A stretch of 64,000 nt of DNA from Candidatus Omnitrophota bacterium (GTDB taxonomy: Bacteria > Omnitrophota > Gorgyraeia > Aquiviventales > Aquiviventaceae): contig JACQHR010000041.1 of the NCBI GenBank assembly GCA_016198905.1, positions 15,434 through 79,433 of the forward strand, given 5' to 3'. Below, in pieces: positions 5,501 to 50,385 of the stretch (the first letter of the stretch is position 1; each line of letters starts with the position of its first letter). The position numbers and the translations under genes were made by a program. Below the pieces are notes generated by a model. The model searched no databases, was not told the DNA's origin, and saw only the letters and a program-made list of their open reading frames with translations.

Positions 5501-5512
5501 CTCAGAGGTTGT

Positions 5513-5544
5513 GTCCAAGTGACCGTGTGGCCACGCGGCCACCC
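5513..5544. repeat. REP-like palindromic intergenic element, copy A
   Basis: The reverse complement of gtccaagtgaccgtgtggccacgcggccaccc shares the 15-mer tggccacacggtcac with copy C. Built from gtggccac/ggtcac octamer units. Confidence 0.6.
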
Positions 5545-5564
5545 AATCACCTCACCATGCTGAT

Positions 5565-6548
5565 TCAGGCTACCCGCTTGATTGTCACTCGTCGGAGCAT
5601 TCGCATGACGTCGGCGCGATGGCATAACTCGGTCCCCGGCGTCATGGCCGTCGCCGTGCCGCTTGCGACGCCGAGGCGAAACGCGTCCTGCAAGGGCTGG
5701 CCGCGCACCCATCCGGTGAGAAATCCTCCGATGAGCGAATCCCCGGCACCGACCGCCGAGCGCGCTCGAATGCGTGGAGGGACTGCTTGCCACACCTCGC
5801 GCGTGTGCGCGCAGCCAAGGAGCGCGCCATCACGGCCCAGAGAGAGCATCACGATGCGCGGCCCCATCTGCAGCAGCCGCTGCATGCCGTGTACGCATTG
5901 AGTGACGGTCGTCAGTCGAGTCCTGAGCACTTCCGCAGCTTCGTCACGGTTAGGTTTGATGCACCACGGGTGCGCCCGGAGTCCGTGCCGCAGGGCTGCT
6001 CCTGAAGCGTCCAGCACCGTCGGGATATCTCGTGCTTGTAACAGTCGAATCCATCGCTGATACACATGGACCGGTGCGCCTGGCGGCAGGCTGCCGGAGA
6101 GGACGACGGCGGCGGGTGCGGGGCGATGCGTCAGCACCGTGCGCTGCAATGCCGCCAGCACGCGGCGAGAGACGACCGGCCCGGCGGTGTTGATTTCCGT
6201 GAGTCCTGCCGGATCGTCGGTGAGAATCTTGTAGTTGTTTCTCGTCGAGCCCGCCACAGGGATAAACCGATGCGGCAGAGCAAGCCGATTCATCAGCTCG
6301 CGCAGGATAAGCCCGTCGTCTCCTCCGGCCAGTCCAAATGCGACCGTATGTCCGCCGAGTTCATGCACGACGCGAGAGACGTTGATGCCCTTGCCGCCGG
6401 GATAGCGCGCGAAGCCGGTGGCGCGGTTGAGGCGGCCCACGCGCAGTGATGAGAGCTGCATCCATTCATCGAGGGAGGGATTGAGCGTGATGGTCGCGAT
6501 CACGGGATGCGCGCGACCGAGTGAGGGGGCTGGCCCGCGTGCGGCCAT
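5565..6548 (-). CDS. PfkB-family sugar kinase (1-phosphofructokinase/tagatose-6-P kinase type)
   Basis: ITLNPSLDEW N-terminal motif, GGKGINVSRV, and the C-terminal GAGDSLIGGF motif. Confidence 0.8.
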   Translation of the reverse strand: MAARGPAPSLGRAHPVIATITLNPSLDEWMQLSSLRVGRLNRATGFARYPGGKGINVSRVVHELGGHTVAFGLAGGDDGLILRELMNRLALPHRFIPVAGSTRNNYKILTDDPAGLTEINTAGPVVSRRVLAALQRTVLTHRPAPAAVVLSGSLPPGAPVHVYQRWIRLLQARDIPTVLDASGAALRHGLRAHPWCIKPNRDEAAEVLRTRLTTVTQCVHGMQRLLQMGPRIVMLSLGRDGALLGCAHTREVWQAVPPRIRARSAVGAGDSLIGGFLTGWVRGQPLQDAFRLGVASGTATAMTPGTELCHRADVMRMLRRVTIKRVA

Positions 6549-6554
6549 GCGGCC

Positions 6555-8039
6555 TTACCGGTGGGCGAGCCGCCGTGCGGACGCGGCCTGCGCCCGCTCA
6601 TACACCTGCACGTAGGCGCGCGCCGAACGGCCCCACGAGAAATCCTGCCGCATGCCGGTTTGCATGAGTGACGCCCAAAGGGCGTGGTCCTGGTACGCCG
6701 AGACCGCGCGTTTGACGGCCTCGACCAGCGCGGAGGCCGCGTGCTCCTGAAACACGAACCCCGTTGCGGATGCGGCCTTCGTCGTCTTGGGCGTGGTGTC
6801 GGTCACGGTATCCGCGAGTCCGCCGACGCGTTTGACGATCGGCACCGCGCCAAACCGCATGCTGTACATTTGATTGAGCCCGCAGGGCTCAAACCGCGAG
6901 GGCATGAGAAACGCGTCCGCCCCGGCTTCGATTTGATGCGCCAATGCGTTATCAAAGGTCAGGTTCACCGCGAGCTGCTTGGGAAACCGCGTGGCCATCT
7001 GCTCGAGCTGCCGGTGGTACACCGGATCGCCGGTGCCGAGGATGACGATCTGCAGCGGCAGCGCCATGAGCGCGTCCAAACCCTGGACAAAAATATCGAT
7101 GCCCTTTTGCTCCGCCAGACGCTGGATCATGCCGATCAGGAGATGCTGCTGTTCCGGCAACCGCTGGCTCTTCTGCAGGGCGAGCTTGCACAAGGATTTC
7201 CCCGCCGGTGTCTGCGCCGAATAGTGCGCGGCGATGTAGGGGTCGGTCTGTGGATTCCATTCCTCCGGATCGATTCCGTTCACGATCCCCACCAGGTCCG
7301 GCTTGCGCGTCGCCAGCACGCCGTCGAGCCCGCATCCGAACTCCTGTGTTTGAATTTCGCGCATGTAGGTCGGGCTCACCGTCGTGATGAGCCGCGCGGA
7401 GACGAGCCCGGCTTTCAAACAATTGATCTGCCCGTAGAACTCGGCGCGGTCGATGGAGAAGGCGGCGTCCGGCAACTGCGTCAGCGTCCATTGCTCCCGA
7501 GGAAATAGGCCTTGGTACGCCAGATTATGCACCGTCAGGACCGTGGCCATCGAGGAGAAGAACGGCTCCTCGCCGAGCGCACCCCACGCCAACTGCGCGC
7601 ACGCCAGCGACGCCTGCCAATCATGGCAGTGCACCACCTCGGGCTGCCACCCCAGCAGCGGCAGCGCGCGCAGAGCCGCCTGCGAGAAGAAGCTGAAGCG
7701 CTCGAGATTATCCGGATAGTCCTTGCCCTGCTCCTGATACAAGCTGCCGCGCTCGAACAGCGCGGCGCACTCGATGAAGTAGATCGTCACACGACTCTTC
7801 GGCACCATCGCTTCCCAGACGCGCCCGGCTCGTTCTTGGGAGCCGCATGAGACCGTCACGGTGTGCGTCGTCGGCTTGAGCCCAAACTTCTCGCGGTTCA
7901 CCTGCTTGTAGAGCGGCATGATGATGCGCACGTCGTGCCCTAAGGCGCTGAGGGCCTTGGGGAGCGCGGCGGCGACGTCGGCCAGCCCCCCGGTTTTGGC
8001 AAACGGGTCGACTTCAGACGCGAGAAAGAGGATCTTCAT
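6555..8039 (-). CDS. glgA: glycogen synthase
   Basis: MKILFLASEVDPFAKTGGLADV is the canonical GlgA N-terminus. The ORF-track extension up to 8273 is not homologous. Confidence 0.9.
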   Translation of the reverse strand: MKILFLASEVDPFAKTGGLADVAAALPKALSALGHDVRIIMPLYKQVNREKFGLKPTTHTVTVSCGSQERAGRVWEAMVPKSRVTIYFIECAALFERGSLYQEQGKDYPDNLERFSFFSQAALRALPLLGWQPEVVHCHDWQASLACAQLAWGALGEEPFFSSMATVLTVHNLAYQGLFPREQWTLTQLPDAAFSIDRAEFYGQINCLKAGLVSARLITTVSPTYMREIQTQEFGCGLDGVLATRKPDLVGIVNGIDPEEWNPQTDPYIAAHYSAQTPAGKSLCKLALQKSQRLPEQQHLLIGMIQRLAEQKGIDIFVQGLDALMALPLQIVILGTGDPVYHRQLEQMATRFPKQLAVNLTFDNALAHQIEAGADAFLMPSRFEPCGLNQMYSMRFGAVPIVKRVGGLADTVTDTTPKTTKAASATGFVFQEHAASALVEAVKRAVSAYQDHALWASLMQTGMRQDFSWGRSARAYVQVYERAQAASARRLAHR

Positions 8040-12451: not shown

Positions 12452-12694
12452 TTACGAGCTGACGACGTCCCCGACGACGGGTTCGACTTTGATGCCCTTC
12501 TTTTCCAGGAATTGGACCGCCTTCTTGAGCCCGTCCTCGGAGCCTTCGAGCTCGAGGGTCACTTCTCCGATGCTGTCCGTGACCCGCGCGCGGCGGATGT
12601 TGGGAATGATGTCATACTCTTTGGACATCATGTAGATGACCGGTTCCTTGATGAGATGCTGCGGAAAAATGAGGGTGACCTGTTTCCGTGCCAT
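12452..12694 (-). CDS. stand-alone NIL-domain protein
   Basis: GGAGG RBS before the ATG at 12694. MARKQVTLIFPQHLIKEPVIYMMSKEYDIIPNIRRARVTDSIGEVTLELEG...FLEKKGIKVEPV matches the NIL fold pattern seen at the MetN C-terminus. Confidence 0.7.
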   Translation of the reverse strand: MARKQVTLIFPQHLIKEPVIYMMSKEYDIIPNIRRARVTDSIGEVTLELEGSEDGLKKAVQFLEKKGIKVEPVVGDVVSS

Positions 12695-12747: not shown

Positions 12748-13551
12748 TCACGCCGTCCCGGCGCACAGCGGTTCCAGTTCCATGAGCGTCCGGATGGTGG
12801 GCTGCTCGCCGCAGACCGCGCACTGCGTATTGCGACGCACCGGCACGTCACGGACACGGCTTGTCATGCCGTCAAACATGAAGAGCCGATCGACCACGGG
12901 CTCCCCAAGACCCAAAAGGACTTTCAGCGTCTCATGCGCCATGAGGCTGCCGAGGATGCCGGCGACCGCTCCCACCACGCCGGCTTCCTGACAACTGGGA
13001 ATCGACCCTGCAGGCGGGGGTTCAGGAAACACACAGCGAAAGCACGCCCCTTGCCGAGGGAGAATCGTCATCACCTGCCCACCGAAATGGACGACACCGC
13101 CATGGATCAGCGGTTTGCCGAGCAACACGGCCGCGTCATTGACGAGATAGCGCGTGGAAAAATTATCCGACCCATCCACGACCACGTCATACGCATCGAG
13201 GATGTCTGCCGCATTGGCCGCACTCAGCCGCTCTTGAATTGGAATCACGGTCACGTGCGGATTGAGCGCTTCCAGCCGCGCCTGTGCCGAGCGCGCTTTG
13301 GGGGAGCCCACAGCTTCCGTCGTATGCAGAATTTGGCGATGGAGATTGCTCAGCGCCACGGACTCGGGGTCGATGATGCCAATGGTCCCCACGCCGGCCG
13401 CCGCCAGATAGAACGCCGCCGGCGAGCCCAATCCTCCGGCTCCGATGATGAGCACGGCCGCGTGGGTCAACTGCTGCTGCCCGGCCACCCCGATTTCCGG
13501 CAGGATCAGCTGACGACCATATCGCAAGATTTGTTCTTTAGATAATGTCAT
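12748..13551 (-). CDS. moeB: MoeB/ThiF-family E1-like adenylyltransferase, no rhodanese domain
   Basis: YGRQLILPEIGVAGQQQLTHAAVLIIGAGGLGSPAAFYLAAAGVG nucleotide-binding motif. CFRC...CAVC zinc motifs. Confidence 0.9.
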   Translation of the reverse strand: MTLSKEQILRYGRQLILPEIGVAGQQQLTHAAVLIIGAGGLGSPAAFYLAAAGVGTIGIIDPESVALSNLHRQILHTTEAVGSPKARSAQARLEALNPHVTVIPIQERLSAANAADILDAYDVVVDGSDNFSTRYLVNDAAVLLGKPLIHGGVVHFGGQVMTILPRQGACFRCVFPEPPPAGSIPSCQEAGVVGAVAGILGSLMAHETLKVLLGLGEPVVDRLFMFDGMTSRVRDVPVRRNTQCAVCGEQPTIRTLMELEPLCAGTA

Positions 13552-13560
13552 CGCGTTATG

Positions 13561-13601
13561 GGTGGCCTGGTGGCCACGAGGTCACACGGTCACGTGGCCA
13601 C
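13561..13601. repeat. REP-like palindromic element, copy B; overlaps the 3' end of the sulfur-carrier CDS
   Basis: ggtggcctggtggccacgaggtcacacggtcacgtggccac. It shares the 18-mer cacacggtcacgtggcca with copy C and has two self-complementary gtggccac octamers. Confidence 0.6.
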
Positions 13602-13881
13602 TGTATGATCCGCCGGCGATCGCAGGGATAATGGACACTTCGTCGCCGTCTTTGACCGCGGTCTGGTCGCCCTGGAGAAACCGGATGTCTTCCTCGTTCA
13701 CGAAGACGTTGACGAACCGGCGCAGCTTGCCCTGCGGGTCGCAGATGCGCTCTTTGATCCCCGGGTAGCGACGCTCCAGGTCACCCAAGAGCTCGGTGAC
13801 CGTCTTGCCGTCACAGGAGACTTCGCCCTGCCCGTTGGTGAGCCGCTGCAGCGGTGTCGGAATGCGCACGGTAATCGCCAT
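13582..13881 (-). CDS. MoaD/ThiS/CysO-like ubiquitin-fold sulfur carrier with 8-aa extension after the Gly-Gly
   Basis: GGAGG RBS. MAITVRIPTPLQRL...GDEVSIIPAIAGG-SYSGHVTV. About 90 aa of beta-grasp pattern ends in GG, then a tail follows. Confidence 0.8.
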   Translation of the reverse strand: MAITVRIPTPLQRLTNGQGEVSCDGKTVTELLGDLERRYPGIKERICDPQGKLRRFVNVFVNEEDIRFLQGDQTAVKDGDEVSIIPAIAGGSYSGHVTV

Positions 13882-13903: not shown

Positions 13904-15154
13904 TTATCGCGCCGAGACGCCCCTGATGCGATCGCCAAGATTGTCTTCGAACGACGCCAGTGTGGGCTTGATGCGCGTCGCACTGCCCAGCCGATTCATG
14001 AGGGGTTCTTGCGTTTTCAATCCATTGCCGGTGATGCACACGACAATGGATTCGTCGCGTGGAATGGTTCCCTGCTCGATGAGCTTCTTGGTGACGGCAA
14101 GCGTCACCCCGCCGGCCGTCTCGGTGAAGACGCCTTCGGTTTCCGCGAGGAGCTTCATGGCCTCGATAATTTCATCGTCGCTGGCGGACTCGGCCCAGCC
14201 GCCGGAGTCCAGGACCGTTTTAGTGGCCGAGTAGCCATCAGCAGGATTGCCGATGGCGAGCGATTTGGCAATCGTGTTGGGCTTCACCGGCTTGACGATA
14301 TCGGCGCGCGCTTTGATCGTCGTGACGATCGGCGCGCAGCCTGTTGCCTGCGCGCAGTAAAATTTGGTGTGCGCCTCGGAGAGCAGCCCGAGGAGTGTCA
14401 GTTCCTTGAAGGCCTTGCCGATCTTCGTGATCAATGAGCCGCCCGCAGCGGGAATCACAATGTGCTGCGGCACGCGCCAGCCGAGCTGCTCGGCGATCTC
14501 GTAGCCGTAGGTCTTCGAGCCTTCCGCGTAGTAGGGGCGGATGTTGATGTTGACGAAGGCCCACGGGTACTTGGCCCCGATCTCGGCGCACAACCGGTTC
14601 ACTTCATCGTAGGTGCCTTCCACCGCAATGAGCGTGGGTTGATAGATGAGCGAGGCGATGACCTTGCCCATCTCCAGATCCGCGGGAATGAAGATGAAGC
14701 GCTTCAAGCCGGCTTTCGCCGCATGCGCGGAGACGGAATTGGCCAGGTTGCCCGTCGAGGCGCAGGCGACGGTATCGAAGCCGAACTCTTTCGCGCGGGT
14801 GAGTGCGACGGAGACGACGCGATCTTTGAAAGAGAGGGTCGGATGCGAGACGGAGTCGTCTTTGATGTAGAGTTCGCGCACGCCCAACGCGGTCGCGAGA
14901 CGGTCGGCCCTGAAGAAGGGGGTGAACCCCGAGGTCAAACCCACGGTCGGTTCCCCCTCGATAGGCAGCAACTCGCGATACCGCCACAGCGACTTGGGAC
15001 GCGACGCAAGGGCGGTTTTGGTCAGCACGCGGCGAATCGCGTCGTAGTCGTAATCCACCTCAACGCCGCCGAAACAGTACTCGCAGACGAACACCACCTC
15101 TTTGGGATAGCGGCGGCCGCATTCGCGACATTTGAGTCCAATGACGTAACTCAT
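13904..15154 (-). CDS. thrC: threonine synthase family PLP enzyme
   Basis: N-terminal zinc ribbon CRECGRRYP...CEYC and the PLP-lysine motif TLSFKDR. The start at MSYVIGLKC fits homologs. Confidence 0.85.
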   Translation of the reverse strand: MSYVIGLKCRECGRRYPKEVVFVCEYCFGGVEVDYDYDAIRRVLTKTALASRPKSLWRYRELLPIEGEPTVGLTSGFTPFFRADRLATALGVRELYIKDDSVSHPTLSFKDRVVSVALTRAKEFGFDTVACASTGNLANSVSAHAAKAGLKRFIFIPADLEMGKVIASLIYQPTLIAVEGTYDEVNRLCAEIGAKYPWAFVNINIRPYYAEGSKTYGYEIAEQLGWRVPQHIVIPAAGGSLITKIGKAFKELTLLGLLSEAHTKFYCAQATGCAPIVTTIKARADIVKPVKPNTIAKSLAIGNPADGYSATKTVLDSGGWAESASDDEIIEAMKLLAETEGVFTETAGGVTLAVTKKLIEQGTIPRDESIVVCITGNGLKTQEPLMNRLGSATRIKPTLASFEDNLGDRIRGVSAR

Positions 15155-15212
15155 GCGTTGGTGCGCTCGAGTTCTCGGACGTGGAATAAGATGCGTTGGT
15201 CCCACACGAGCC

Positions 15213-15473
15213 TCACGTGATGAGTGCTCGTTTTCTCACGAGCAGCCGCACGCCAGTCGTGGCCGGCTCGCTGACGAGGATCTCATGGCCTTCCGCGCGG
15301 AGCCCAAACGGAATGGTGTTCAACGGTTCGCCTTCATCGATGTAGAGTTCGAGGATTTCGTGCTCGGCCATTCCCTGCAATTGGACGACGGCTTTCTGAT
15401 AGCTCTCGGGACGATCGATCCCCCGAGCATCAAGAGACGCGTCGACGCGCAGGCCCGTCAGCGGTGTGGACAT
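15213..15473 (-). CDS. TusA/SirA-fold protein lacking the catalytic cysteine
   Basis: LDARGIDRPESY...ELYIDEGEPLNTIPFGLRAEGHEIL...LVRKR aligns by eye with E. coli TusA LDALGLRCPEP...IIADDPATTRDIP...LIRKG, but Cys is replaced by Arg. Confidence 0.5.
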   Translation of the reverse strand: MSTPLTGLRVDASLDARGIDRPESYQKAVVQLQGMAEHEILELYIDEGEPLNTIPFGLRAEGHEILVSEPATTGVRLLVRKRALIT

Positions 15474-16414
15474 TAGCTCTCAAAAAAGGCGTAGATGCTC
15501 AAGTACCGTTCTCCCGTATCAGAAAATACCGTGACCACGGTTTTACCGCTGCCCAGTTCTTTGGCGACCTTCAGCGCGGCCCAGCAGGCGGCTCCGGAGG
15601 AAATGCCGACGAAGAGCCCTTCTTCTTTCGCCAAGCGCCTTGAGGTCTCGTAGGCCTGCTCATCCGTGACTGGTATGATCTCATCAATGACGGCGCGATT
15701 CAAGACCTGCGGCACGAATCCCGCTCCGATGCCTTGAATCATGTGCGGCCCAGGGGCCCCACCGGAAAGCACCGGGGACGCCTTCGGTTCCACCGCCACA
15801 ATCTTCACGTTCGGATTCCTGCGTTTGAGGACTTCGCCGACTCCGGTCATGGTGCCGCCGGTGCCGACACCCGCCACGAACGCATCGATGGCGCCGTCGG
15901 TGACACGCAGAATTTCCTGCGCGGTCGTTTTGCGATGCGCCTCGGGATTGGCCGGATTGATGAACTGTTGGGGCATGAACGCGTTGGGGGTCTCTTTCGT
16001 GATTTTCTCGGCGCGTCTGACGGCTCCGATCATGCCTTCGGCGGCCGGCGTCAGCACGACCTCGGCGCCGTAGCCTTTGAGAATTTGGATGCGTTCGGCG
16101 CTCATCGTTTCCGGCATCGTCAGGACGATTTGGTAGCCTTTGGCCGCGCAAATCATCGCCAGGCCAATGCCGGTATTACCGCTCGTGGGCTCGACCACCG
16201 TCGAGCCGGGCTTGAGGAGTCCCTTGGCCTCGGCGTCTTCGATCATCGCCAGACAGATGCGGTCCTTCACGCTGCCGCCCGGATTGAACGATTCGAGCTT
16301 CGCAATGATGGTTGCCATGCGCGGTTCGACGATCCGCTGCAGGCGCAGCATCGGCGTATTCCCGATGAGTTCGACCACGCTCTCGGCGACTTTATGTTTG
16401 ACCGTATTCATCAT
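15473..16414 (-). CDS. cysK: cysteine synthase (O-acetyl/O-phosphoserine sulfhydrylase family)
   Basis: GNTPMLRL, the PLP-lysine [14 protein letters not shown], and GTGGT motifs. The A versus B/M subtype cannot be decided by eye. Confidence 0.9.
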
Positions 16415-16680
16415 CTCGTGTGTTCGCGGTGGGGAAGGATGCGCAGGGTCCGGTGTGCGCGTTCATGAACCGAGTGCCCTTGACTTGCGGCCCAGACGCG
16501 CAGATCCGCGGCGACATCCATCGTATTGTACATGACGTCAAGCGCCTGACTAGGCTGGAGCGCGTTCACGGCTTGCGCGACCACCGCCAGCGCCTGCGCG
16601 CAGAGCATGTCGCGCGCGTCCACGGTCAGCGTCGGAAGTTCGGCCATTATACCAGGTTGATTGAATCCTGTCTGCGTCAC
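16411..16680 (-). CDS. TusA/SirA-like sulfurtransferase, Cys retained
   Basis: [34 protein letters not shown] compares with TusA LDALGLRCPEPVMMVRKTV. ATGA overlaps on both sides. Confidence 0.65.
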
Positions 16681-17084
16681 CCGCCCGACTCGATGGTCAC
16701 AGGCTCTGGCGCAATCGTCTGCCCGTTAATCCGATAACTTTTGACATCCGGATGCGCCTGATCGTTCAACGACACGAGCACGTAGGATACGTCCGGCGAA
16801 ATGGCCAGACTGACATCCACCGATGACGGATACGCAGCGCTGGCCGTGTGGGAATGGAAAATTCCCAGGAGCTGCTGCCCCTGCCGGCGCATCTGCTGTT
16901 CCACCCGGAGCTGTTCGCGCGGGTCCATCGCGTAGCCGATCGAGCTGTCTTCGATGTTTGTCATCGGGTAGACCTGCATGACGCGGCCGTCGTTCCCTGC
17001 CAAGAGTCCGCACGCTTCTTTCGGATAACGGCTGCGGCAATGCGCGACCATCCGGTCCTGCAGGGCGTGCGGCATCCGCAGCAT
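16677..17084 (-). CDS. JAMM/MPN+ metallopeptidase (Mec/HcyD/QbsD-like)
   Basis: EACGLL glutamate motif plus HSHTASAAYPSSVD, which fits H-x-H-x7-S-x2-D. The start is 1 nt after the permease stop. Confidence 0.85.
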   Translation of the reverse strand: MLRMPHALQDRMVAHCRSRYPKEACGLLAGNDGRVMQVYPMTNIEDSSIGYAMDPREQLRVEQQMRRQGQQLLGIFHSHTASAAYPSSVDVSLAISPDVSYVLVSLNDQAHPDVKSYRINGQTIAPEPVTIESGG

Positions 17085-17085
17085 G

Positions 17086-17847
17086 TCACAGCGTTCCCGT
17101 GCCCCAGCGTTCGCGGACACGCCGCTCCAGGGGAGCAAAGGCCATCCGATCAACGAGGAGCCCCAAGGCCACGATCACCGCCATAACCGCAATCACTTGG
17201 CTCATGTCGTTCAATTCGCGTCCCATCATCAGCAAGTGCCCTAACCCGACGTGGCCGTACAATAACTCCCCGGCCATCAGCGCGCGCCAGGCAAACGACC
17301 AGCCCAGCTTCATGCCGGTGACAATCCCGGGCAACGCGGCCGGAAGCATCACCTGCAGATACAGCCGCCAGCCTGATGCCCCCATGTTTTTTGCCGCGCG
17401 GATTTGCTGTCTGGGAGTATGCTGCACGCCATCTTCCGCCGATAAACTGATAGACAGCACGGCCCCCATGACGACGACGAAGATAATCGCGCGTTCGTTC
17501 AGTCCGAACCAGAGCAAGGCCAAGGGCAACCAGCAGATGCTCGGCAGTGTTTGCAATCCCAGCAGCAGCGCTCCTATTGTTTGATGCAGCCAGCGAATCG
17601 AGCCGGTCAAGAGTCCCAATGGCAATCCGATCGCCAACGACATCCCGTAGCCAATGACGAGCCGCGTGAGACTCACGCCGAGCGCCCGCACGAGCGTGCC
17701 GTCTCGCAGGCTGTGGACGAGCATGGCGGCCACGCTCTGTGGCGAGGGAAACAGGAAGTCCGGCCACACGCGCAACAGATAGAGGGCCTGCCATCCCAGC
17801 AGCAGGCTTGCAAAAAACGCGACGCGGTACCACACCACTCGTTGCAT
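17086..17847 (-). CDS. ABC transporter permease, NitT/TauT (sulfonate/taurine/nitrate) family
   Basis: 6-TM pattern. EAA-loop RAAKNMGASGWRLYLQVMLPAALP is typical of SsuC/TauC-type permeases. Confidence 0.85.
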   Translation of the reverse strand: MQRVVWYRVAFFASLLLGWQALYLLRVWPDFLFPSPQSVAAMLVHSLRDGTLVRALGVSLTRLVIGYGMSLAIGLPLGLLTGSIRWLHQTIGALLLGLQTLPSICWLPLALLWFGLNERAIIFVVVMGAVLSISLSAEDGVQHTPRQQIRAAKNMGASGWRLYLQVMLPAALPGIVTGMKLGWSFAWRALMAGELLYGHVGLGHLLMMGRELNDMSQVIAVMAVIVALGLLVDRMAFAPLERRVRERWGTGTL

Positions 17848-17862
17848 CGAATACCTTGGGCC

Positions 17863-18927
17863 TCACGAGCCAGACACGTCTGGCAGTTGTTGTTCCCGCA
17901 GAACGGTATTGAGCAAGGTCGCATCGACCAGCCCGCTGAGGTTCGGGTTCGACGCTCCTAAGAATCCAACCGTGAACGCATGCTGCGCGCAGGCTTGCAA
18001 AGACGTCGCGAGCGGATCGTACGTCACCGTCAGCCTGGACCAGGCGTCATCCAGCACGGCAGCCGCAATGGGTTTGCCGGTCAGCCGCTGGAGCTCTGTA
18101 TTCAGCATCGCCTTGGCATCAACGGGATGCGCCGCAATCCAACGCGTCAGCTCCACATGCGCGCGCAACCATCGAAGAATCAACTCCTGGCGATCGTGCA
18201 GCGCCTGTGCGCTGACAATGACCACGGCGGTTGGGAATTGCCGCGTGGGCCAGAGGTCTCGTTCATCGACGAGGATCCGCCCATGGGCCTCATGCACGAG
18301 ACGAGCCCCCCACGGTTCCGGCACCCAGGCCGCGTCAATCTCCTTGCGCAGGAATCCACTGAGGATATCCGCATTCTGCATCGGCGTGACGCGGACCGTG
18401 CCTCCCCGCTCCGTCGCCTCAAGGTCGTGCTGGCGCAAGTAATGCCGCAGCGCGATGTCTTGCGTATTCCCTAATTGCGGCGTGGCGATGATCCGATTTG
18501 GAAAATCCTGCACCGACGTGATCCCGCTGTCCTCGCGCACGACGAGCACGGCGCCTCCGCTGGCCGCCCCCGCGACAATGCGCAAAGCCTGGCCATGAGA
18601 TTTCACAAAGCCATTGATGGCCGGATTCGGACCGATATACACCAGATCGAGTTCCCCGGCAAAGAGCGCTTCAATGGCAGCAGGGCCGGCATTCAGCGCA
18701 AAGGGGCGGATGTGCGCGTCCTCGCCCAGCGCCCGCTGAAACGCCCCGTTTGATAGACCAATCAGGGCTTGGGCATGAGTGATGTTCGGAAAGTAACCCA
18801 CGCGCAACTCCATCGCCCTGGGCTGTGGCTTGTCACAACCGCTGAGGAGCAGCAGCCCCATCGAGAGGGGGAGTCCCCAGCTCGACACGCTCCTGAACGA
18901 TTGCCACAACGACACGCCCATCCCCAT
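17863..18927 (-). CDS. ABC substrate-binding lipoprotein, NMT1/SsuA/TauA-like
   Basis: Lipobox LLLLSGC. VGYFPNITHAQALIG and LVYIGPNPAING are typical of this SBP family. Confidence 0.75.
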   Translation of the reverse strand: MGMGVSLWQSFRSVSSWGLPLSMGLLLLSGCDKPQPRAMELRVGYFPNITHAQALIGLSNGAFQRALGEDAHIRPFALNAGPAAIEALFAGELDLVYIGPNPAINGFVKSHGQALRIVAGAASGGAVLVVREDSGITSVQDFPNRIIATPQLGNTQDIALRHYLRQHDLEATERGGTVRVTPMQNADILSGFLRKEIDAAWVPEPWGARLVHEAHGRILVDERDLWPTRQFPTAVVIVSAQALHDRQELILRWLRAHVELTRWIAAHPVDAKAMLNTELQRLTGKPIAAAVLDDAWSRLTVTYDPLATSLQACAQHAFTVGFLGASNPNLSGLVDATLLNTVLREQQLPDVSGS

Positions 18928-22467: not shown

Positions 22468-22800
22468 TAAGAAAAAACGGCAAACAATTCTTGGACTTGG
22501 CGAGGTTGTTGCGCATCCTAACGGGCAGGAAAATCACTCAGCACGTCTATCTTAGTACTGAGTGCTTAGTGCTCTGTGCTAAGAAAAAGCCCCGTCTCTG
22601 CCGTTGGTTCCGTCCACGTTGAACCCTACCTCAACAGGTGGGTACCCTCTCCGATGGGGGATAGCGTCCCGTGTTTCGTTCTGGGCGTGCGAACCCCAAC
22701 GAAAGCCGGATTCCCGGTCACGTGGTGTTGGCTCACGTCGACTGGAACCTGACGCGCAGTACAGGGCTCATGTTTACGCTAGCACTGGGGCCGGCCAATT

Positions 22801-27843: not shown

Positions 27844-27872
27844 GTCACATGGCCACACGGTCACGTGGCCAT
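27844..27872. repeat. REP-like palindromic element, copy C
   Basis: gtcacatggccacacggtcacgtggccat. An 8-bp stem atggccac/gtggccat flanks the loop acggtcac. It sits in the rpmI-rplT intercistronic gap. Confidence 0.6.
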
Positions 27873-31544: not shown

Positions 31545-31618
31545 TGGGCGGTAGAGGATTCGAACCTCTGGCCTTCACTATGTCAAAGTGACGCTCTAAC
31601 CAACTGAGCTAACCGCCC
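31545..31618 (-). tRNA. tRNA-Val (anticodon GAC)
   Basis: The reverse complement folds as a cloverleaf: acceptor GGGCGGT/ACCGCCC, anticodon arm TCACT-TTGACAT-AGTGA, T arm AGAGG-TTCGAAT-CCTCT. Confidence 0.9.
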
Positions 31619-31656
31619 GTGCTGCGGTGTGCTTCGATACCCGCGAGAACAGAACA

Positions 31657-31742
31657 TGCCGGGGGTGGGACTCGAACCCACACGTCCCTTTCGGGACAAG
31701 AGATTTTAAGTCTCTCGCGGATGCCAGTTTCGCCACCCCGGC
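31657..31742 (-). tRNA. tRNA-Leu (anticodon TAA)
   Basis: Acceptor GCCGGGG/CCCCGGC, anticodon arm AGAGA-CTTAAAA-TCTCT, long variable arm GTCCC-GAAA-GGGAC, T loop TTCGAGT. Confidence 0.9.
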
Positions 31743-31772
31743 GCATCTGGCGTATGCCTCGATGAAGTGACG

Positions 31773-31844
31773 AGGCGCGGATCGGAATCGAACCGATGTA
31801 TAAGGGTTTTGCAGACCCTCGCCTTACCACTTGGCTACCGCGCC
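31773..31844 (-). tRNA. tRNA-Cys (anticodon GCA)
   Basis: Acceptor GGCGCGG/CCGCGCC, anticodon arm AGGGT-CTGCAAA-ACCCT, T arm ATCGG-TTCGATT-CCGAT, discriminator U. Confidence 0.9.
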
Positions 31845-32432: not shown

Positions 32433-33097
32433 CGATGCGCCCTGAGGCTGGCTTGACCGTACCAGAGCCCTTCTACTTTGTCAAGGAGCACCCGTGCAAT
32501 GGCGGGCTTGGCGCACCGTCCCAGCGGCGTCACCACGCCGTTTCGTTCCACCAGCCAGGCGCGCACGCGCGTGCGCCCAAACGGCGTCTGGCGCGCGCTC
32601 GCGGCTTGGGCGAGGATGACGTCCAACCGCTTGGTGCGAAGCTTCCGTACCGCACGTGCGAGCACCGATCCTGTTTCCAAGGCAAACCCCACGATCAGCT
32701 GTCCTTTGTGTCTGGGCAATCCGCCTACAATGTCCGGCGTGGCGGTGAGCCGCAACGTGTGCGTCCGCGCCCGCGGCAATTTCCGTGCGGCTCGTCGTAC
32801 CGGCCGGAAATCGGCGATTGCGGCCGCCATCATGACCACGTCCGCGCGCGGAGCCCGTCGCTGAAGCGCGTGCGCCATGTCTTGCGCCCGCTCAACGGGG
32901 ATGACGCGCGCGCCGGCCGGCATCGGTTCCCTGACGGGCCCGGTCACCACGGTGACCCGGTGGCCGCGCGCCAACGCCTGGGTCGCGAGCTGCGCGCCCA
33001 TGTACCCGGTCGAATAGTTTGAGAGAAAGCGCACCGGATCGATGGGCTCGCGCGTTGGGCCGGCGCTGATGAGCACCCGCAGCGGTCGCCGGCGCAT
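32429..33097 (-). CDS. coaB: phosphopantothenate--cysteine ligase (CoaB), encoded separately
   Basis: [34 protein letters not shown] is the canonical CoaB motif. The start lies 20 nt after the coaC stop. Confidence 0.8.
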
Positions 33098-50313: not shown

Positions 50314-50385
50314 GTCCCCATCGTCTAATGGTTAGGACAACAGCCTTTCGAGCTGACAATGGGGGTTCGATTCCCCCTGGGGACA
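50314..50385 (+). tRNA. tRNA-Glu (anticodon TTC)
   Basis: Acceptor GTCCCCA/TGGGGAC, anticodon loop CTTTCGA, T arm GGGGG-TTCGATT-CCCCC. Confidence 0.9.

Follow-up and report, generated by a model that had tools for sequence, protein, structure and literature searches.

Extended sulfur carriers and their proteases

The enzymology of the ThiS, MoaD and CysO carriers has established that an unprocessed tail blocks adenylation of the Gly-Gly end. CysO of Mycobacterium tuberculosis is tail-less and ends at Gly-Gly; in this organism Mec+ hydrolyses the CysO-cysteine adduct. HcyS of Wolinella has one Ala after the Gly-Gly. JAMM trimming of extended carriers has been documented or proposed for the pairs QbsE-CF/QbsD and CxnE-SEAARAEESR/CxnF (PMC5925218), in agreement with the original prediction, which had named QbsD/QbsE as a precedent, and Iyer et al. 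2006 (PMC1779556) predicted that JAB proteins release fused ThiS/MoaD domains. DRJAMM has been reported to cleave a MoaD-MoaE fusion (PMC8832034), and the GapMind preprint, citing Hasebe 2024, states that MetO of the MetM/MetO pathway does not mature without Mec.

The carrier gene considered here lies in a 64-kb stretch of DNA that was analysed as a whole (the window), and the carrier is probably a further instance of a scheme already known, the removal of such tails by a protease encoded nearby. Like QbsE/QbsD (thioquinolobactin), HcyS/HcyD (Wolinella) and CxnE/CxnF (chuangxinmycin), it combines residues after Gly-Gly with a JAMM gene in the cluster, and the JAMM motif ExnH(S/T)Hx7Sx2D is common to those clusters and this one; the CxnE tail also starts with Ser, like the tail SYSGHVTV found here. 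However, whereas the tails of QbsE, HcyS and CxnE have been described as fixed features of single proteins, the present tail differs from one near-identical orthologue to the next, and in this genome a dispersed palindrome serves as its template. The CysO/Mec+/CysM/MoeZ system of M. tuberculosis, which performs protein-thiocarboxylate cysteine synthesis, likewise combines an E1 enzyme with a synthase of the CysK/M type and a protease of the JAMM family, but differs in its carrier without a tail and in the rhodanese domain of MoeZ, which is missing from the E1 protein here, two TusA-like genes being present instead. The homocysteine pathway of Streptomyces albulus (MetO/MetM/Mec/MoeZ; Hasebe et al. 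2024), as described in citing papers, is alike in having the carrier directly downstream of a threonine-synthase-like PLP enzyme and a JAMM gene in the cluster, but the cluster here also holds CysK/M, TusA-like and NIL genes.

The carrier gene and its operon

The features of the carrier gene and its immediate surroundings are as follows.

13582..13881, minus strand: sulfur-carrier precursor gene of the CysO/MetO-type ThiS/MoaD beta-grasp family, 99 codons and TGA (open reading frame and translation); NCBI record MBI3997312.1, Candidatus Omnitrophota MAG
13609..13614, minus strand: Gly90-Gly91 codons GGC GGA, the activation site required as a free C-terminus (sequence; ends of the Pfam and CysO alignments)
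13585..13608, minus strand: tail S92-V99, codons TCA TAC AGT GGC CAC GTG ACC GTG, i.e. SYSGHVTV (translation)
13582..13584, minus strand: carrier UGA stop, within palindrome copy B (three-copy comparison and translation)
13552..13581, minus strand: 30-nt spacer from carrier stop to thiF ATG; translation across the junction GSYSGHVTV, stop, PRGHQATHNAMTLSKEQ

The ThiS domain covers carrier residues 5-91 (Pfam, 6e-19, profile positions 1-76 of 76), so that Gly91 is the exact end of the profile match. The best PDB match, M. tuberculosis CysO (3DWG_C, 8e-26), aligns end to end with residues 1-91, and the chain stops at the Gly-Gly aligned to Gly90-Gly91. The translation product, in contrast, ends ...AIAGG-SYSGHVTV; the Gly-Gly is followed by eight residues, as had been predicted, and the reading frame, its translation and the ends of both alignments bear this out. 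A terminal Gly-Gly, presumably, exists only after trimming. The eight extra residues are probably present because a palindromic repeat sits between the carrier gene and the next gene. In the spacer, which is in the carrier frame, neither a second stop codon nor a Shine-Dalgarno-like sequence was found.

The neighbouring genes, all on the same strand, encode the putative machinery of carrier activation and use.

12452..12694, minus strand: NIL-domain protein of about 80 aa (Pfam NIL, 1.9e-14)
12748..13551, minus strand: ThiF/MoeB-type E1 adenylyltransferase, 267 aa, no rhodanese domain (Pfam ThiF, 3.8e-82; NCBIfam MoeB/UbaA-like)
13904..15205, minus strand: PLP enzyme resembling threonine synthase, its N-terminal segment Cys-rich (Pfam PALP, NCBIfam thrC)
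15213..15473, minus strand: TusA-like small protein (Pfam TusA, 7e-6, 26.2 bits, below the gathering cut-off of 28.6)
15473..16414, minus strand: CysK/CysM-type cysteine synthase (NCBIfam cysK, 1.7e-139)
16411..16680, minus strand: second TusA-like small protein (Pfam TusA, 1.9e-6, 28.1 bits, below the gathering cut-off of 28.6)
16677..17084, minus strand: JAMM/Mec-type metalloprotease, Prok-JAB (Pfam, 7.7e-25; related PDB structures 2KKS and 5LDA, the latter of JAMM1), with a possible extension of the reading frame to 17153

The partner E1 gene begins 30 nt beyond the carrier stop. The JAMM protein retains the intact motif EACG...HSHTASAAYPSSVD, i.e. E...HSHx7SxxD (regular-expression search), which, together with the Prok-JAB match, confirms the predicted presence of a JAMM peptidase with an intact E...HxHx7Sx2D motif in the carrier operon. 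The C-terminal Gly-Gly of the JAMM protein itself is not conserved in relatives and was dismissed as coincidence. Judging from sequence matches, the CysK/M-type and MetM-like PLP enzymes are putative consumers of the carrier thiocarboxylate; the threonine-synthase-like gene, which adjoins the carrier gene upstream in most of 80 related loci, is a candidate for a MetM-type homocysteine synthase using the thiocarboxylate. No SAM riboswitch was found in a scan of the whole window with Rfam 15.

A dispersed palindromic repeat encodes most of the tail

Three copies of the repeat are visible in the 64-kb window.

13561..13601, no strand assigned: copy B, 41-nt compound palindrome, GGTGGCCTGGTGGCCACGAGGTCACACGGTCACGTGGCCAC
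13570..13578 and 13593..13601: 9-bp arms of copy B, GTGGCCACG and CGTGGCCAC
13562..13577: 6-bp inner hairpin of copy B, GTGGCC-TGGT-GGCCAC
5511..5551: copy A, in opposite orientation, in the gap between genes of a pfkB-family kinase and a transglutaminase-like protein, both on the minus strand
27849..27872: copy C, ATGGCCACACGGTCACGTGGCCAT, within the 68 nt that separate rpmI (L35) from rplT (L20)

Copies A and C confirm that the palindrome also occurs in two non-coding gaps, as was claimed at the outset. The accompanying claim that the codons of SGHVTV and the stop lie within copy B holds for G95, H96, V97, T98 and V99 and for the stop, all of which are wholly inside the element, but not for the codon of S94, which is only partly inside; the codons of S92 and Y93 are outside. 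Copies A and B are equal at 32 of 41 positions, and an exact 18-nt stretch is common to copies C and B. The carrier UGA exists because of a single base specific to copy B, T13582, which in copies A and C is C and would give TGG.

The possibility that the three copies are chance resemblances of GC-rich palindromes rather than a repeat element has next to no probability in our estimation, albeit none of the pairwise matches is, taken singly, more than moderately improbable and the self-complementary sequence GTGGCCAC is not rare (3 matches vs 1.2 expected). In 200 windows simulated with a first-order Markov model, the best match to the 41-mer of copy B was 28/41, as compared to 32/41 observed, and the 24-mer of copy C reached at most 19, as compared to 20/24 against A and B; neither observed value was ever attained. 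The core GGYCACACGGTCAC has 4 matches vs 0.6 expected, and TGGCCA-N(4-24)-TGGCCA occurs twice vs 0.11 expected. Moreover, all three copies are located in short intergenic gaps, which constitute a small share of the window. The similarity of copies A, B and C is beyond chance, and the repeat family is real. A scan of JGI metagenomes with TGGCCACN{0,8}ACGGTCACGTGGCCA yielded no further genuine copy of the palindrome, which would fit chance resemblance; its sole match to the element is in a probable coding region of an unrelated contig and was itself judged to be due to chance. A candidate fourth copy at 32942 was rejected, since it is within a coding sequence and fails to align.

The element resembles REP elements: it is short, GC-rich and imperfectly palindromic, and several copies, facing either way, are scattered over small gaps that separate genes of the same direction; with 41 nt and a possible stem-loop it is close in size to REPs (20-40 nt). 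However, REP elements occur in tens to hundreds of copies per genome, as compared to the three visible here in 64 kb, and are extragenic, which is true of copies A and C, whereas copy B reaches into the carrier gene, taking up its final 5-6 codons and the stop. REP elements are associated with a RAYT (IS200/IS605-like) transposase in their genome. The predicted hairpins also are without unusual stability, and the folding energy of each copy was not better than that of shuffled sequences (z -0.8 to -1.7). Some MITEs, the Rickettsia palindromic elements among them, insert in frame into genes (PMC10969869). The present case is similar to the latter in that a palindromic repeat adds translated codons while the gene stays functional, but Rickettsia palindromic elements are about 150 bp long and reside inside the mature protein, whereas here 5-6 codons and the stop are affected at the extreme C-terminus, presumably to be removed post-translationally. 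Considered as a possible terminator, copy B was discarded: positions 13550-13610 contain no terminator-like site and no U-tract, the hairpin being followed by CAGGCCACCCAUAACG. One promoter-like match (9/12, plus strand, 13581-13609) overlaps copy B.

The junction in near relatives

The tail SYSGHVTV was seen only together with an identical element-bearing junction, i.e. in the window, in a second strain recovered twice, from different samples (L089, L090), and in L086, a Logan assembly made independently, all of which share the same 57 nt. Carriers that are 98% identical (P0126, P0128; L087, L088, L091) have no element and a stop directly after the Gly-Gly, the stop either overlapping the thiF ATG or being followed by a 17-nt spacer. 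L001, L011 and L013 have tails of 1-2 aa and a stop overlapping the thiF ATG (ATGA). Orthologue comparison had been named as a test that might refute an insertion, namely if repeat-free orthologues carried the same tail; they do not, and the predicted origin of the tail by insertion is supported by this presence/absence polymorphism. Since the repeat-free orthologues are without the tail, the most economical reading is a lineage-specific gain of an element-bearing spacer of ~55 nt, which would have moved the stop eight codons downstream. An ancestral junction GGA TCA TGA was considered, which would have had S as its tail and an ATGA overlap and would have received the insertion behind TCAT; it was dropped, because the S-tailed relative L097 has TCG TAA and a 72-nt spacer.

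The direction of the indel is inferred by parsimony, the ancestral state being uncertain given the variable junction. According to the reverse scenario, the spacer and palindrome are ancestral and were deleted in relatives, the tail being the older state with no insertion at all. Polarity is hard to fix because the junction is hypervariable, with distances from Gly-Gly to ATG of about 2, 5, 20, 51, 57, 78, 80 and 236 nt, and three lineages have a common tail start S-[Y/H/W]-S-G and TCAY..AGYGGC-like codons. We nevertheless consider an ancestral spacer improbable: the genome has paralogous copies of the element, while its 14-nt core had no match in 80 related genome loci; none of ~15 close-relative junctions outside the window lineage (L086, L089, L090) contains the element; no homology above that of shuffled sequences was detectable between spacers of different lineages; and stop/start overlaps occur in near as well as distant relatives (L087, L001, L011, L013).

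Between the window and L089, the 57 nt of the junction (119 nt with flanking codons) show zero differences, whereas third codon positions differ by 23%; an unchanged junction has a probability of about 4e-7 if the rate of third positions is taken as the basis, and of 0.004 with the overall rate. This argues for constraint or recent recombination or exchange rather than neutrality, suggesting that tail and spacer are not evolving like junk between the two strains. One interpretation would be that the element is not a passive insertion but has been selected as a signal between the two cistrons, at the level of RNA or DNA, and that the tail is a side effect of its placement behind the Gly-Gly; its hairpin could set the carrier-to-E1 ratio, stabilise the upstream transcript, or couple carrier termination to thiF initiation. 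Besides the unchanged junction, the location of all three copies between co-directional genes inside operons would fit such a role, as would the tendency of post-carrier spacers of at least 40 nt to fold somewhat better than shuffles (mean z -1.27 vs -0.36), with very strong hairpins at L097 (z -5.8), L081 (z -4.6) and L017 (z -4.3). In addition, thiF is without a Shine-Dalgarno sequence here, whereas relatives rely on the Gly-Gly codons (GGAGG) and on a stop codon that overlaps the start. In E. coli, translation is reportedly modulated by REPs located no more than about 15 nt from a stop codon (Liang, Rudd and Deutscher 2015). On the other hand, copy B folds no better than shuffled sequences (z -0.83; z -1.09 in its 131-nt context), RNA structure over the 119-nt conserved patch is not significant (z -1.09), the site has no U-tract terminator and no match to Rfam 15 at E <= 1 (13400-13750), and relatives manage without any spacer; over the whole window, Rfam 15 detected 6S RNA and four tRNAs only. 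The identical patch, moreover, reaches synonymous sites of both flanking genes, which fits recent recombination at least as well. A selected signal is conceivable, but we regard it as doubtful. It would be compatible with JAMM trimming.

Probable trimming of the carrier

We consider it probable that the carrier is a 99-aa precursor, that its residues 92-99 are accidental translation of spacer DNA, and that JAMM trimming makes the tail tolerable. A spacer of ~55 nt around the 41-nt genome-specific palindrome appears to have come to lie between the Gly-Gly codons and the thiF start, where the nearest spacer-free relatives terminate directly after Gly-Gly, overlapping the thiF ATG or ~17 nt before it. 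With a spacer gained beyond the Gly-Gly, the carrier frame would therefore run on into the repeat up to its internal UGA. The JAMM/Mec-type zinc protease of the operon is expected to cut after Gly91, whatever residues come next; the ThiF/MoeB-type E1 would then adenylate Gly91, which would be converted to the thiocarboxylate, and the latter may feed the adjacent CysM-type and MetM-type PLP enzymes for the formation of cysteine and homocysteine. Cleavage after Gly91 by the JAMM protein is inferred from homology and from the precedents, with indirect support from the small first residue of most tails and from the co-occurrence of tails and proteases: a JAMM gene is present within about 5 kb at 11 of 14 loci with tails of at least 5 aa vs 12 of 39 whose tails are shorter (p = 0.004 by Fisher's test, without correction for phylogeny), where loci scored as JAMM-negative may have JAMM genes elsewhere in the genome.

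A different fate is conceivable if the tailed carrier were a decaying, unprocessed allele, inactive because its tail would block adenylation of Gly91, with another carrier doing the work. This appears very unlikely, as the carrier core is under strong purifying selection: at 94% nucleotide identity it differs from L089 by 17 nt, 16 of them at third positions, but by only 2 aa, and it has 98% amino acid identity to L087 at 86% nucleotide identity, the latter value also applying to L091. The tailed form is, furthermore, found in at least two strains and four assemblies, the whole carrier operon is intact, and tails are the majority state in the clade. Similarly, the UGA within the palindrome might be leaky, yielding some carrier-linker-ThiF fusion protein to be resolved by the JAMM protease, comparable to carrier-NIL fusions. 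The thiF gene continues the frame of the carrier, the 10 codons between the two are free of further stops, and the UGA is followed by C, a context in which termination is weak in E. coli; in-frame carrier fusions do exist in relatives. However, sharing of a frame has a 1 in 3 chance, 10 stop-free GC-rich codons are unremarkable, and where other relatives have a spacer, thiF is in a different frame or a second stop is present, so that we give leaky termination very little credence.

Tails across the clade

The probable status of the carrier as a precursor has to be seen in the context of its homologues. Among the 120 closest, which are representatives of 90%-identity clusters at identities of 80-96%, 87 have non-homologous tails of 1-75 aa, a share that is inflated because different tails fall into different clusters. 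The 90% cluster of the window's own carrier alone comprises lengths of 91, 92, 95, 96, 99, 100 and 129 aa. L092 and L093-096 have almost the same junction apart from one TGA>GGA change, which gives L092 a tail, and in more distant relatives (L004, L005, L007-L009, L020, L021) a NIL domain is fused in frame directly after the Gly-Gly. In two other genomes different dispersed repeats occupy this junction: the element of L003 is MITE-like and 167 nt long, and L097 has arrays of heptamers. The notion of the tail as a special event is not borne out by these data; it is one instance of a clade-wide, hypervariable read-through beyond the Gly-Gly.

The position of the carrier stop codon would be weakly selected across the clade because everything after Gly-Gly is removed, and tails may appear and vanish via spacer turnover, repeat insertion and simple stop-codon mutation. 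If so, the locus provides a clean natural example of a processing protease that relaxes selection on the stop codon of a gene, since carriers that are nearly identical may be tail-less, end in one extra residue, in eight residues encoded by the repeat or in a tail due to a single stop-codon mutation, or have a whole domain fused to them. Current understanding is not overturned by the findings on tail and repeat. In annotation, 'MoaD/ThiS family' proteins of 92-130 aa encoded beside JAMM genes should be read as precursors, and for a neighbouring 'threonine synthase' a role as MetM-type homocysteine synthase should be considered.

Trimming and selection might also have acted in succession. JAMM trimming would have freed the 3' end of the carrier gene from selection on stop position, the first few dozen bases behind the Gly-Gly would be translated intergenic DNA where genome-specific repeats and hairpins repeatedly settle, and the palindrome of the window lineage would by now be functional, as an intercistronic element conserved in its nucleotides, with the stop in its loop, setting thiF expression or the fate of the carrier mRNA. 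Taken as a whole, we think this combination rather unlikely; if true, the protease would be an evolutionary buffer, thanks to which regulatory DNA can spread into the end of a coding sequence.

The first tail residue is S, A or G in 73 of the 87 tails, and natural tails of this kind represent a ready-made substrate panel for the specificity of JAMM/Mec proteases. The tail of P0059 reads SYR. The tail of P0001, ...KRVTCNVTR, looks palindrome-encoded, judging from its protein sequence.

The sulfur-assimilation cluster and its carrier

The minus strand of the window harbors a sulfur-assimilation cluster at 12.4–21 kb, with the following genes in order:

minus strand: ATP sulfurylase, followed by an ABC transporter (ATPase, NMT1-like binding protein, permease)
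16677–17084, minus strand: Prok-JAB/JAMM protease
minus strand: TusA-like protein, CysK/M-type cysteine synthase, second TusA-like protein
13904–15205, minus strand: threonine-synthase-like PLP enzyme
13881–13582, minus strand: ThiS/MoaD-family carrier of 99 aa (NCBI MBI3997312.1, Candidatus Omnitrophota groundwater MAG)
12748–13551, minus strand: ThiF/MoeB-type E1 (thiF)
12452–12694, minus strand: small NIL-domain protein

The threonine-synthase-like gene is located directly upstream of the carrier gene in the window and in most of 80 related loci, in keeping with descriptions of MetM-type homocysteine synthases; its automatic designation as “threonine synthase” (TIGR00260, 289 bits) is probably wrong. 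Residue Gly91 of the carrier is the exact end of the Pfam ThiS profile match, and is followed by the eight residues SYSGHVTV and a UGA stop. The best solved relative, CysO of M. tuberculosis (3DWG_C, E 8e-26), can be aligned end to end, but terminates at the aligned Gly-Gly (GG), whereas the window carrier continues for eight more residues.

A palindromic element in the tail

According to the original prediction, the tail is encoded by a REP-like palindrome that also occurs in two non-coding gaps. Three copies are visible in the window:

5511–5551, copy A, in opposite orientation to B: 32/41 ungapped match to B, between a pfkB-family kinase gene and a transglutaminase-like gene
13561–13601, copy B: GGTGGCCTGGTGGCCACGAGGTCACACGGTCACGTGGCCAC, at the carrier–thiF junction
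27849–27872, copy C: exact stretch of 18 nt in common with B, between rpmI and rplT

Copy B consists of 9-bp outer arms (13570–78 and 13593–601) around the inner hairpin GTGGCC-TGGT-GGCCAC. It contains the codons of G95–V99 and the stop; that of S94 spans its edge, and those of S92 and Y93 lie outside. Simulation of 200 Markov-1 windows gave matches of at best 28/41 for the 41-mer of B (observed, 32) and 19/24 for the 24-mer of C (observed, 20). Since both matches exceed the simulated best, and all three copies fall between closely spaced, co-directional genes of the minus strand, the predicted repeat was confirmed. The predicted hairpins of the copies did not exceed shuffled sequence in stability (z -0.8 to -1.7), neither a U-tract terminator nor an Rfam match was found at the element, and a JGI metagenome scan for it yielded no genuine additional copy. 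“REP-like” is a fair description, while these results do not establish REP membership.

Origin of the tail

The exact window protein is also encoded, by identical DNA, in an independent Logan assembly (L086), and P0127, a variant that keeps the tail but differs by two substitutions in the core, occurs in two further samples (L089, L090). An identical stretch of 57 nt from the GG codons to the thiF ATG is common to all four. Two further carriers with 98% protein identity (86% at the DNA level) end at GG and lack the element. At the junction of locus L087, a stop placed directly after GG shares bases with the thiF start (TGATG); TAA plus 17 nt is found in L091, and TAA followed by unrelated sequence in L088. 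Tails of only 1–2 aa occur in the more distantly related L001, L011 and L013, because the stop overlaps the thiF ATG (ATGA); here, the GG codons (GGAGG) double as Shine-Dalgarno sequence. No homology was detectable between the spacers of the different lineages compared. The most economical reading of these junctions is that this lineage alone gained a spacer of about 55 nt around the repeat, which shifted the stop downstream by eight codons. Within the limits of sequence comparison, this supports the insertion proposed originally: tail and element occur together, and the same tail was not found in orthologues without the repeat.

The stop in use depends on T13582, a base specific to copy B. 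Copies A and C have C at this position and would read TGG in the same frame. Carrier and thiF share one reading frame, separated at 13552–13584 by a single UGA (context UGA-C) and ten sense codons, and no Shine-Dalgarno sequence precedes the thiF ATG in the window. Given the shared frame, the consensus base would have resulted in an in-frame carrier–ThiF fusion. UGA read-through at 13582–13584 would likewise yield such a fusion.

The tail start S-[Y/H/W]-S-G (TCA YRN WSN GGC) is common to three lineages (window, 13597–13608; L081, 479–490; L083, 340–351) with otherwise unrelated spacers. It may have been retained from a common ancestor or reflect a cleavage-site preference.

Conservation of the junction

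In the alignment of window and L089, 88 of 960 positions differ, as do 23% of third codon positions. Within the carrier core, 16 of the 17 nucleotide differences are at third positions, and only two amino acids differ, indicating that the core is clearly functional. Positions 13520–13638, comprising the last nine core codons, the tail, the element and the first eleven thiF codons, are free of differences between the window and L089/L090; these 119 nt, centered on the element, are the longest invariant run of the 960-nt comparison. For the 57 nt of tail and spacer to remain unchanged, the probability is about 4e-7 if the third-position rate is applied and 0.004 if the overall rate is used. This suggests either constraint at the nucleotide level or recent exchange of the patch by recombination, which the window/L089 comparison does not separate, since the flanking synonymous sites are frozen as well. 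Structure after the carrier gene showed a modest excess in spacer-bearing loci (mean z -1.27 vs -0.36). The invariant junction does not fit a purely passive tail; a role of the conserved element as functional intercistronic signal would increase its interest.

Carrier ends across the clade

Among the best 120 homologues (80–96% identity, representatives of 90% clusters), 33 end at GG and 87 carry unrelated tails of 1–75 aa. The share of tailed carriers is overestimated, since carriers with different tails fall into different clusters. The 90% cluster of the window carrier itself comprises proteins of 91, 92, 95, 96, 99, 100 and 129 aa, and tail lengths in the genomes of 80 species representatives span 0–99 aa. 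In L092 (513–542), the stop after GG is changed from TGA to GGA, giving the 9-aa tail GRLTVSGRR that extends as far as the next in-frame TGA. This single change distinguishes L092 from tail-less L093 (718–770) and L094–L096, core and spacer being otherwise near-identical; the change is due either to natural stop loss or to a sequencing error in one 552-nt contig.

Other repeats occur at this junction. The carrier–thiF spacer of L003 contains a MITE-like element of 167 nt (6337–6503) whose inverted ends measure about 55 nt; a copy with 98% identity lies 6.3 kb upstream (1–167). In L097, heptamer arrays (GCCTTGA / CCTCCAA-like) directly precede start codons at three intergenic sites (7967–8006, 14978–15042, 17805–17882), one of them the carrier–thiF junction. 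Tail endings recur, namely ...WPGSR or ...WPASR (P0002, P0005, P0037, P0064) and ...RVTCNVTR or ...RVTCDVSR (P0001, P0022), suggesting that translation of further repeated or palindromic sequences takes place at this junction elsewhere; a perfect palindrome with a 10-bp stem can encode RVTCNVTR.

The NIL domain, encoded separately in the window, is fused in frame to the carrier directly after GG in seven loci among the 80 species representatives (L004, L005, L007, L008, L009, L020, L021; e.g. L005, 6274–6540) of more distant relatives, labelled as Planctomycetia, Omnitrophota and Desulfuromonadales MAGs. Release of a free carrier would require cleavage.

Clade-wide, the post-GG end behaves like translated intergenic DNA, presumably because a protease removes whatever is made. 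This behavior is of more interest than the window tail itself. Carriers accompanied by a JAMM protease are already known, as are palindromic repeats contributing codons, with the Rickettsia palindromic elements as precedent (PMC10969869); the window case is new in combining the two.

Proposed processing by the JAMM protease

Adenylation of ThiS, MoaD and CysO requires a free Gly-Gly carboxylate, hence the precursor has to be trimmed. The JAMM protease predicted to do so indeed has a complete E...HSHx7SxxD motif. Cleavage after Gly91 by this enzyme would be followed by adenylation of Gly91 by ThiF and sulfur loading, possibly via the TusA-like proteins, and the thiocarboxylate would then be used by the CysM-type and MetM-type enzymes. 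A direct precedent invoked originally, QbsE (tail CF) with QbsD, is documented or proposed, as is CxnE (tail SEAARAEESR) with CxnF (PMC5925218). For the MetM/MetO homocysteine pathway, a GapMind preprint citing Hasebe et al. 2024 describes the JAMM protease Mec as required for MetO maturation. A MoaD–MoaE fusion is reportedly cleaved by DRJAMM (PMC8832034), and release of fused ThiS/MoaD by JAB proteins was predicted by Iyer et al. 2006 (PMC1779556).

Of 14 loci with tails of ≥5 aa, 11 have a JAMM gene at a distance of up to about 5 kb, as compared to 12 of 39 with shorter or absent tails (Fisher p = 0.004, loci counted regardless of phylogeny). Where cyanobacterial loci lack a JAMM gene in the vicinity, their tails measure 0 or 1 aa. 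Ser (43), Ala (24) or Gly (6) occupies the first position after GG in 73 of 87 tails (84%), which may reflect a protease preference for the residue after the cut. The C-terminal ...IESGG of the JAMM protein itself (16677–16682) is not conserved in L001, L002, L003 and L097, and is thus probably a coincidence.

RNA genes in the window are a 6S RNA gene (22585–22770, minus strand; 78.9 bits), a cluster of three tRNA genes (31545–31844, minus strand) and one further tRNA gene (50314–50385, plus strand).
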